A stretch of 25,972 nucleotides of DNA from an uncultured bacterium (GTDB lineage Bacteria > CAIJMQ01). Shown one piece after another: positions 17,001 through 20,000 of this stretch. The DNA lies in contig CAZNJA010000016.1 in NCBI GenBank assembly GCA_964573245.1, forward strand, positions 1 through 25,972, read 5' to 3'. Position 1 is the stretch's first letter, and every line of letters starts with the position of its first letter. The position numbers were made by a program.

Positions 17001-20000
17001 AAATAGTCAACAGGATTATTGCCACTCCGTAATTATTGGTCAATCTATGGAAGAATTTAAGGATGTGGACTATATGAAACAGGTTGCCAAAAAGCCCATA
17101 GTCCACTATTTTGGAAGTTTCTCTCCCAACTTGATATAAATGCTCCAACTTTTTAGGGCCCAAATACATGTCGAAAGAAAATTCGCTTTTTTGCGCAGGT
17201 TCAAGGGCAGATATCGCTACTTTTAATCCTATTTTATGCTCTCCATATTCATTTTTTTGAATATACGCACTTTTGACGGTTTCATTAGGTATTAAAATTT
17301 TGGCAAAATACTTGTTTTGCAAAGCTACCCAACCAATTTGTCCGTATTCTACAATTGGATTTTGAGAGCCCCTCCCGAATTTCTCTCGTTTTAATTGGTT
17401 GTTGAGAAAAACCACAGGTTCAAATTTGGTATAAGTGCGAATTCCTTCGTTAATACCCACATCAGGCCCGCAGGTTATTAAAAAATCATGATTTTCTAAA
17501 GCCTCGGCTCCAATGTTTTCCACTGTAATTTTTACGCTCACCAAATATGAGTCAGGAGCAAAAGCGAATTCTTTTTTAAGCGAAACCAAACCAGGTATTT
17601 CTTTGATCAATTGGACTTTGTTTGGTCCTTCTCTGACAAGCTCATAATTAGTCTCCTCCGACCATATTACTTTGTTGTTTTTGTCTCTTATCTGTAAAAA
17701 AGGCGGAAAGTAATCGTGATACTGCTCGCTAAAAGATATTAATTCAACGCCTTCATGATTATTGGATTCTTCAAGGTGGGATATCTCATATCTTAACTTT
17801 TTGATTGGATATAGAAGGGGAGAATCTATATCAAGATTATGGAGTGCTTGCGATGCGGCCTGTTTGCGGAATTGTTGCTGTGCTTTTTGCAACTGCTGTT
17901 GTAGTTGTCCAATTCCAAAATCTCTTGTTTTATATTCATTTAACCTAAAACTGCTTATCCCGCCATTTTCTGAGAGTAAAGCAGAATATAATGGCAACTC
18001 AAACGCAACTTCTTCCGATTTAGTCGGTTTAAGTACCGCTTCGTTTAATAACTGTTCTATTTTTTCTTCGCTTTTTTCTTGGCTTTCTTCTAATTGCCCT
18101 TGCTTTTTAGGTTGGGGAGCATTGATAACCTGAAAAAAGATAAGCACAAAAATTATTAATACAACAGCCAAAATTACCCTTTTTTCCATGGAATGAACTC
18201 CTCTTTGGCAAAACTAATTACACGTACACCTGTCTAATTTTAGTAGACACACAAATTTTCCCATAAAAACGAATCTCTCCGCGCTAAAGCACAGGGTTTC
18301 TTTTCTTTGACAACCATGAACTGTGTCCCGAGCAAAACGATTTAAAAAAGGAAAAATATTCTCCATTAATCGGAAATCATTTTAGTGGGTCGTAACCCCC
18401 AGGATGAAAAGGATGGCACTTGGCAATCCTAACCAATGTATAAAAAACACCTTCCAGCACGCCTTTTTTGTCTATGGCTTCATAAGCGTATCGAGAGCAA
18501 CTTGGATAGAAACGGCAATGTTTTCCTAATAGAGGGGAAATGAAACGTTGGTAAAAAAGCAATAGTTTCAATAAGATTATCCGCATACTTATATACCTTG
18601 AATTTGACAAAGAATTCTTAATACCTCCCGTAAGAAAACTGTCGGCTGATAATATTTCCAGTGTCTGCTACCTGCGACCTGATATTAATCTACGGAGATT
18701 CTTTTTCTCCCTTTTTTCCTACGTCGGGCTAACACTTTCCTGCCGTTTTTACTCTCTAATCTTTTCAGAAAGCCATGAGTTCTTTTTCTTTTCCTTTTTG
18801 ATGGCTGATAAGTTCTTTTAGTCATTCTTTTCTCCTGTCACTTATTAGTTAGGTATTATAAGATAAACCTCTGCCAATCGTCAAACCTATGCACGTAGAA
18901 TAGAAGGAAGGCGGTTTGAACCAGGATCAAACGAAAGGATATGAAAGGTATATCGATTTTTACAAAAAATCTTACTCATCTTGCCTGTTCTTTATGGTTT
19001 ATTGGTGCCTAAACTCTCAATTTGTTTATATCGCTTTCTTTACCAATAACCATCAAGACGCTGTCCGGTTTTATCTTGACATCAGCCTCAGGTATCAAAT
19101 GGAGTGTGTCCTGTAGCACATCCTTTACGGCAATTACCTCTATATTGTATTTACTGCGCAATTGGAGTTCCTTCAATGATTTCCCGACAAAATCGTCAGG
19201 AACGGCGATTTCCATTATGCTGTATTCGGGGGCGAGAGGTATATGCTCTATGAGATTGGGCATTGTTAACCTTTGGGCCAGCCTTACAGCCTCTTCCTTT
19301 TCTGGATAAATCACTTCCATGGCTCCTATTAATTTTAATATTTGTCCGTGGTCGTCATTTATTGCTTTTACAATAATTTTCTTGACTCCCAACTCCTTTA
19401 AATAAAGTGTGGTCAAGATACTCGCTTCTATTTTATCTCCTAAACTAATAATAGCCGCATCGATGTCGCTGCTTATGATCTCGGATAAGGCGTCTTTTTC
19501 TTTGACATTAGCAGCAACTGCCTGCGTTACTTTGTCTTTAATTTGTTCGATTTTTTTACTGTTCGCGTCGATAGCTAACACTTCGTTATTCTGTTCGAAC
19601 AAGGAAACTGCCACATTGTATCCGAAATTACCCAAACCTATAACAACAAATTGTCCCATTTTATCCTCCATTGCCTGCCGAGGCCTAAAGGCGAAGGCAG
19701 ACTTCCTTCGTCCCTATCATTCGTTTCGCTTTGGTGAAACAAGGAACGAACCAAAACGGAACAGTAGGGACTTAATTATCCTACCAAAACATCTGCTTCG
19801 GAATATTTAAACTTTGACGGTTTTGGTTTACCAACAAGCGAAAAACCAATAGCCAACGGTCCCATTCTTCCGACCAACATTGTAATGGATATAACTATCT
19901 TGCCAATATTACTAAGAGACGAAGTTACTCCAGTGGATAAACCCACGTTACTCAAAGCGGATACTACCTCAAATACAACCTGCAGAAAAGCGGCTTTTTC

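Follow-up and report, generated by a model that had tools for sequence, protein, structure and literature searches.

RnpA, the protein subunit of bacterial RNase P, is regarded as essential in vivo (PMC4919922; PMC10941002), and it binds the RNase P RNA at P2, P3, J18/2, and CR-V (PMC4919922). A survey finds RnpA in nearly all bacterial genomes. In that survey, RnpA serves as a proxy for the RNA enzyme and the RNA itself was not searched, so that an RNA kept without RnpA would be invisible to it (PMC6380272). The known exceptions to RnpA are lineages in which HARP replaces the whole enzyme and tiny endosymbionts. The Aquificaceae, with the gene order rpmH-yidD-yidC and no rnpA, have also lost the RNA gene (rnpB) and use HARP (PMC10941002). 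Candidatus Hodgkinia cicadicola, which lives in insects as an endosymbiont and whose genome is tiny, has rnpB and apparently no rnpA, and action of the RNA alone has been proposed for it (PMC6581868). Both genes are reported missing from eight further endosymbionts (PMC7191817), whereas all Mollicutes examined keep both (PMC4014445).

The bacterial family described here compares with each of these systems. Its locus has the gene order of the Aquificaceae; unlike them, it conserves rnpB, and HARP was not found. Like Hodgkinia, it has the RNA and no detected RnpA, but its state is shared by a family and a whole further phylum with genomes of 1.3–2.6 Mb. Hodgkinia, which presumably could rely on factors of its host or co-symbionts, is the sole precedent found. 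A literature search, mostly outside subscription papers and supplements, returned no report of RNA without RnpA in either lineage. The G000 RNA matches the bacterial type A model over its whole length, a feature shared with the type A holoenzyme. It departs from that enzyme in the missing RnpA, in the absence of P18 and P19 (and of P14 in one genome), and in mismatches in P2 and P13. Archaeal type A RNA is also described without P13/P14 and P18 (PMC4919922), and it has been suggested that proteins allow archaeal RNAs to tolerate their deletions (PMC12974513). However, the G000 RNA has the score of a bacterial type A molecule and retains P13, and the archaeal protein Pop5 was not found in five genomes. 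The P RNAs of Chlorobium and Aquificales have likewise lost P18 (PMC8457005), but P18 loss does not explain the missing protein here, as in this phylum it also occurs where RnpA is present (G006 and G007).

The rpmH-yidD-yidC Locus

The window is the whole stretch of DNA analysed, 25,972 nucleotides, and corresponds to contig C16 of genome G000 (1.456 Mb, 110 contigs, 93% complete). Usually, rpmH is the first gene of the operon rpmH-rnpA-yidD-yidC, with rnpA between rpmH and yidD. The preliminary description held that rnpA is gone from this slot, and the window bears this out (Table 1). Both intergenic gaps are too small for an RnpA of ~115 aa, so neither contains rnpA. The ORF in the second gap (18366-18214, minus strand) encodes 50 aa, has no Pfam match, and has no counterpart of at least 38 aa in the related genome G002.

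Table 1. Features of the window and the RNase P RNA gene of the same genome
Feature	Position	Strand	Evidence
rpmH (ribosomal protein L34, 46 aa)	18685..18825	-	PF00468, E 1.9e-22
Spacer without rnpA, 98 nt; no ORF, no RnpA remnant	18587..18684	-	
yidD	18377..18586 (ATG 18586; longest start TTG 18610)	-	PF01809, E 3.7e-29
yidD-yidC spacer, 187 nt, with an unconserved 50-codon ORF that is not RnpA	18190..18376	-	
yidC, membrane insertase (582 aa)	16441..18189	-	PF02096, PF14849
tRNA-Pro(GGG), a substrate in need of 5' maturation	21188..21266	-	
RNase P RNA gene	G000 C102:1607-1925 (outside the window)	+	RF00010, 216.6 bits

The same adjacency of rpmH and yidD occurs at all nine loci of eight genomes in the phylum. 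The earlier count was thus correct, but its use as a sign of loss in the family was not. The slot is equally empty in G006 and G007, two genomes of the phylum that carry rnpA elsewhere, head to head with an HNH gene. An empty slot is therefore no mark of RnpA loss; in the window it is the trace of an older move or loss, not of the state of the family. Two genomes are uninformative: yidD of G005 begins at a contig end, and G008 (64% complete) does not include the locus.

The surroundings of the locus also vary. The gene dnaA often sits upstream of rpmH. In genus g1, the genes directly upstream of rpmH (window 19009-21125, minus strand) resemble a TrkA/TrkH-like potassium uptake pair, and in G006–G008 lon takes the place of this pair.

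Searches for RnpA

PF00825 matches none of the five family genomes, two of the nine genomes in the phylum (G006 and G007), and 69 of the 72 genomes outside it. TIGR00188 returned the same two real matches. A further TIGR00188 match in G004 (E 0.007) was rejected because it lies out of frame in the end of a transporter gene and contains two stops. A profile built from 153 RnpA sequences was then run with all filters off. It found no RnpA among 23,972 ORFs of at least 30 aa in G000 (best E 0.16) or among 22,849 ORFs of G002 (best E 0.32), whose 14 contigs were all covered (1,470,419 nt, no N). The top matches were unrelated proteins, or ORFs that were short or overlapped others. A leave-out profile, made without the phylum's own RnpAs, detects these divergent proteins at E 1e-23 to 1e-25, and in the unfiltered searches the controls score at least 20 orders of magnitude better than the best family match.

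Profile-profile comparison (hhalign) covered 814 called proteins of 60–230 aa and 638 uncalled ORFs, the latter tested separately because the gene caller missed some real genes. The best score was 22.6 (probability 11%), against 94–98 (99%) for the controls. With an 83-row RnpA alignment, G001, G003, and G004 yielded no match at E 2 or better, and both divergent controls were recovered. Regular expressions for the RNR motif hit only chance frames in G000.

The rnpA slot of G006 and G007 is bordered by HNH-yacG-BFN on one side and a DUF4175 gene on the other. In G000, G002, and G004, the corresponding position holds mgtE and no rnpA, and in G005 the two flanks lie in other contexts. A DUF4175 query found nothing in G001, G002, G003, or G008. 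The BFN/DUF151 (bifunctional-nuclease) gene of G000 (C5:15268-15727) looks broken or frameshifted relative to those of G002, G004, and G005.

Other RNase P Proteins and Candidate Partners

In line with the preliminary description, HARP was not found in the phylum. With a criterion of a ~200-aa PIN_5 protein over the PF08745/TIGR03875 cut-off, none was found in the nine genomes, and PF08745 by itself has no match over the cut-off in the five family genomes. The weak HARP-model matches are 340–360-aa proteins aligned only over positions 158–203. Pop5 (PF01900) was sought without result in G000, G002, G003, G045, and G088, whereas four archaeal controls were positive. YlxR/RnpM was not found in five genomes, among them G000, G002, and G003.

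G002 shares 164 small basic proteins with G000. Of these, 142 were scanned against Pfam, with 18 ribosomal-cluster and four border-crossing proteins set aside. Rpp21, Rpp29, Rpp30, and L7Ae were not among the 142 (no genome-wide search was aimed at these families), and the 16 without a family include none that resembles RnpA or an RNase P protein. Another 65 small basic proteins of G002 without a G000 match were inspected by eye.

Two partner candidates were rejected. A 105-aa zinc-ribbon protein belongs to the widespread Bh family. DUF4416 (L139:13090-13614 in G002; C17:4821-5339 in G000) occurs in 40 of 81 genomes, including the RnpA-bearing G006 and G007, and has an HPPK/ferredoxin-like fold. 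Its predicted structure (pLDDT 94) is ferredoxin-like and closest to HPPK (Z 8.0, rmsd 3.3, 109 aligned residues). Foldseek gave no match to it at E 0.001 or better, and there was no RnpA among the 50 matches listed. The many invariant polar residues of the model suggest that DUF4416 is an enzyme. Two genes of G002 match the archaeal-type chromatin protein MC1 (PF05854; L075:2179-2472, minus strand, E 9e-20; L084:1286-1579, minus strand, E 5e-22), and both have counterparts in G000.

The RNase P RNA

RF00010 was found in eight of the nine phylum genomes (all except G003) and in 70 of 72 outside. The RNA reported earlier as an intact type A molecule is confirmed as such, with a score far above the gathering score of 100 and a full-length match (model positions 1–367). 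It keeps CR-I to CR-V, P4, the P6 complement, the L15 GGU motif, and P13. By alignment, the family RNA has the P6, P16, and P17 of type A and lacks P5.1 and P15.1, and the peripheral P13/P14 and P18 set of that type is incomplete. Helix names and E. coli-style numbering were checked against Rfam alignments.

The absence of P14 and P18 from the G000 RNA, noted in the preliminary description, also holds. P18 loss does not mark RnpA loss, as none of the eight phylum RNAs has the helix, even where the genome carries RnpA. Among these RNAs, only that of G000 lacks P14, and the same deletion is seen in metagenome contig L202. The G000 RNA gene lies behind zinc-ribbon and RNase HI genes, as in G001 and G002, which places its short contig in the lineage.

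The last 130 nt of the RNA are identical at 127 positions between G000 and G001, a member of another genus, and likewise between G000 and G002, whereas the flanks are 49–59% identical. The catalytic core is almost invariant, and P13 shows compensatory pair swaps; P4, P7, and P16, which automatic pairing mis-anchored, were excluded from the pair analysis. Judged from these alignments, the RNA is kept under strong selection. Contigs from four RNA libraries, each of a different study, contain pieces with the family's 3' signature; their depth is low, DNA carry-over is possible, and they attest to presence and not to cleavage of pre-tRNA at +1. The RNA runs cover small shares of the stretch (0.04–0.13), and most contigs are conserved motifs of other bacteria. 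Hence, no habitat is assigned to these cells, and a lack of coverage in the flanks is not taken as evidence.

The pair next to the P2 end is U·U in all seven family RNAs (four genomes and three contigs found by a family pattern downstream of the P2 site) and in none of 52 others parsed. It is U•G in the four other phylum RNAs. Outside the phylum, 48 of 50 RNAs could be parsed at this pair, with 46 standard pairs, two mis-parsed, and no U·U. A C·A mismatch in P13 occurs in six of six family rows and none of four others. P2 is part of the RnpA-binding face, and the U·U tracks RnpA loss in the family, as one inherited event and not seven. Because RnpA binds the P2 region, a fixed defect there fits relaxed RnpA binding. 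A U-to-G change in J18/2 was discarded as a mark of loss, since 10 of 48 outside RNAs share it.

Other RNAs show peculiarities of their own. The G004 RNA (L012, C45:2-412) has an insertion of ~80 nt in P12, and the L203 RNA has a long P3 extension. The L187 RNA, from G052 (87% complete), lacks P18 and comes from a genome with no RnpA match. G052 was rejected as a further RnpA-less lineage because the other genome of its order carries RnpA.

tRNA Substrates

In a Nanoarchaeum-like leaderless route, there is no RNase P RNA and all tRNAs are transcribed from +1. The family has the RNA, and some of its tRNA genes lie in tandem (Lys-Glu in G000, Ile-Ala in G002); these need an internal 5' cut and argue against a purely leaderless route. 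The earlier statement that tRNA genes have short leaders or lie in tandem thus stands for the tandem genes. Short leaders are not a distinguishing mark. The distance from a -10-like box to tRNA +1 is mostly 8–15 nt in G000 and G002, where many boxes end 12–15 nt before +1, and mostly 7–11 nt in the RnpA-bearing G007, so that the leaders of G000 and G002 are not shorter. U at position -1 is found in 22 of 36 tRNA genes of G000 and 26 of 43 of G002, versus 15 of 36 in G007, and CCA is encoded by 18 of 37, 18 of 44, and 6 of 37, respectively, in a comparison that uses a single RnpA-bearing genome of different base composition. In the part of the G045 genome covered, the values are 11 of 16 for U(-1) and 13 of 16 for encoded CCA.

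A Second Phylum Without Detected RnpA

The feature is real and is wider than first described. G045 (94% complete) is one of three genomes outside the phylum without RnpA. Its phylum comprises 31 genomes (G045 and G081–G110; loci L243–L270) from 15 genera and seven families. PF00825 matches none of the 31, and RF00010 matches 25, 24 of them over the cut-off. In ten tested genomes, HARP was not found over the cut-off, and the 83-row RnpA alignment gave no real match, with two weak partial ones at E 0.097 and 0.21. An unfiltered RnpA search over 775 kb of the ~1.6 Mb of G045 had its best match at E 0.1, in a 36-aa ORF. The absence in this phylum rests more on filtered searches than that in the window family does. 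The gene rpmH was found in only three of the 31 genomes, where rnpA does not follow it. Thus, an RNA kept without RnpA or HARP, first described for one family, apparently extends to a second, whole phylum.

The RNA of this phylum keeps canonical P2/P3/J18/2, P13/14, P18, and P19 and lacks P17 and the P6 complement (P6 pseudoknot). As its P2 is canonical without RnpA, the P2 mismatch is no general mark of loss. In G045, a region of ~1 kb upstream of yidD (L142:1740-2900) contains no ORF above ~70 aa. Among 21 public genomes with the RNA motif of this phylum, 11 carry the title Ca. Aerophobetes or Aerophobus; the other titles are "Clostridia bacterium" and "bacterium". Source labels are also mixed near the window family, with Ca. 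Ratteibacteria for close relatives and Caldiserica for the G006 RnpA.

Fate of rnpA and Routes to 5' Maturation

The gene rnpA has quite probably been truly lost in the family, by whatever mechanism. The preliminary description placed it nowhere else in the genome, and the Pfam, unfiltered, and profile-profile searches agree. It also named two ways in which this could fail. The family genomes are incomplete bins (81–96% complete), and rnpB itself is missing from G003, so rnpA might lie on a small or atypical contig outside every bin. Such an artefact is very improbable: independent misses would have a chance of ~7e-6, given the five completeness figures, G002 consists of only 14 contigs without any N, the smaller rpmH was found in all five genomes, and the second phylum shows the same absence. 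An RnpA homologue that diverged beyond profile detection, with its RNR motif lost too, is unlikely, if less so. Bacterial RnpAs are described as sharing little sequence similarity (PMC4919922). The RnpAs known in the phylum are already divergent, with Pfam E ~1e-14 versus 1e-19 to 1e-34 for most, and the tests relied on sequence profiles. However, in the harder profile tests the best family match fell more than 20 orders of magnitude short of the controls, the profile-profile comparison was blank, and the motif scans gave no convincing ORF. Nor did a scan of 1.84 billion representatives reveal a form between the phylum RnpA (7.5e-56) and the generic one (7e-21 or weaker), and the same divergence would have to be assumed in another 31 genomes.

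How the 5' ends are then made can be read in several ways. We give roughly two chances in five to the RNA as catalyst together with an unrelated helper protein. On this account, rnpA would have moved out of the rpmH operon throughout the phylum and then been lost in the window family; the type A RNA would still cut tRNA 5' leaders and would lean on an RNA-binding protein unrelated to RnpA. A helper appears most likely because the RNA has shed struts (P18, and P14 in G000) and has mismatches at the RnpA-binding face. It is also favored because lost braces reduce the efficiency of the RNA alone, by 6- to 37-fold when the L18-P8 contact is broken (PMC8457005), and because the reaction of the RNA alone is reported as negligible at 4.5 mM Mg2+ within 15 min for RNAs of other bacteria (PMC9945441). 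Against the helper, none was found among the proteins scanned, and the second phylum, also without detected RnpA, has a canonical P2/P3/J18/2 and keeps P13/14 and P18. Loss of P18 also occurs with RnpA present, and all the genomes are incomplete bins.

The same blank partner searches and the well-braced RNA of the second phylum speak for an RNA that works without a dedicated protein. Its low rate would be enough for anaerobes that grow slowly, with assistance from cations or polyamines and from tRNA features that the RNA itself recognizes (U at -1, encoded CCA). The RNA retains the L15 GGU motif, both tRNA features are more frequent than in G007 (weakly in favor, given the one genome compared and its base composition), and the idea is the one put forward for Hodgkinia (PMC6581868). 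This account is doubtful, however, because the family RNA has lost stabilizing helices and gained none, because of the negligible rates cited above, and because slow growth is an assumption. Less likely by far is a protein nuclease other than HARP that performs 5' maturation and leaves the RNA a secondary role. PIN/NYN-type proteins are present in the family, and protein-only RNase P is reported to have evolved twice from PIN-like folds (PMC10941002). But a nearly invariant catalytic core would be hard to reconcile with such a role, the weak HARP-model matches are confined to a short stretch of larger proteins, and identity between the NYN proteins of G000 and those of G002 is only 21%. The preferred reading thus remains the RNA with an unrelated helper. 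A protein-free RNase P ribozyme in both the window family and the second phylum, in genomes of 1.3–2.6 Mb and with RnpA lost more than once, is a tentative proposal that we consider rather unlikely.

If RnpA is indeed gone from these bacteria, either outcome would matter. They would harbor either an RNase P that naturally works without protein or a new cofactor of the RNA, unrelated to RnpA and to the archaeal proteins.
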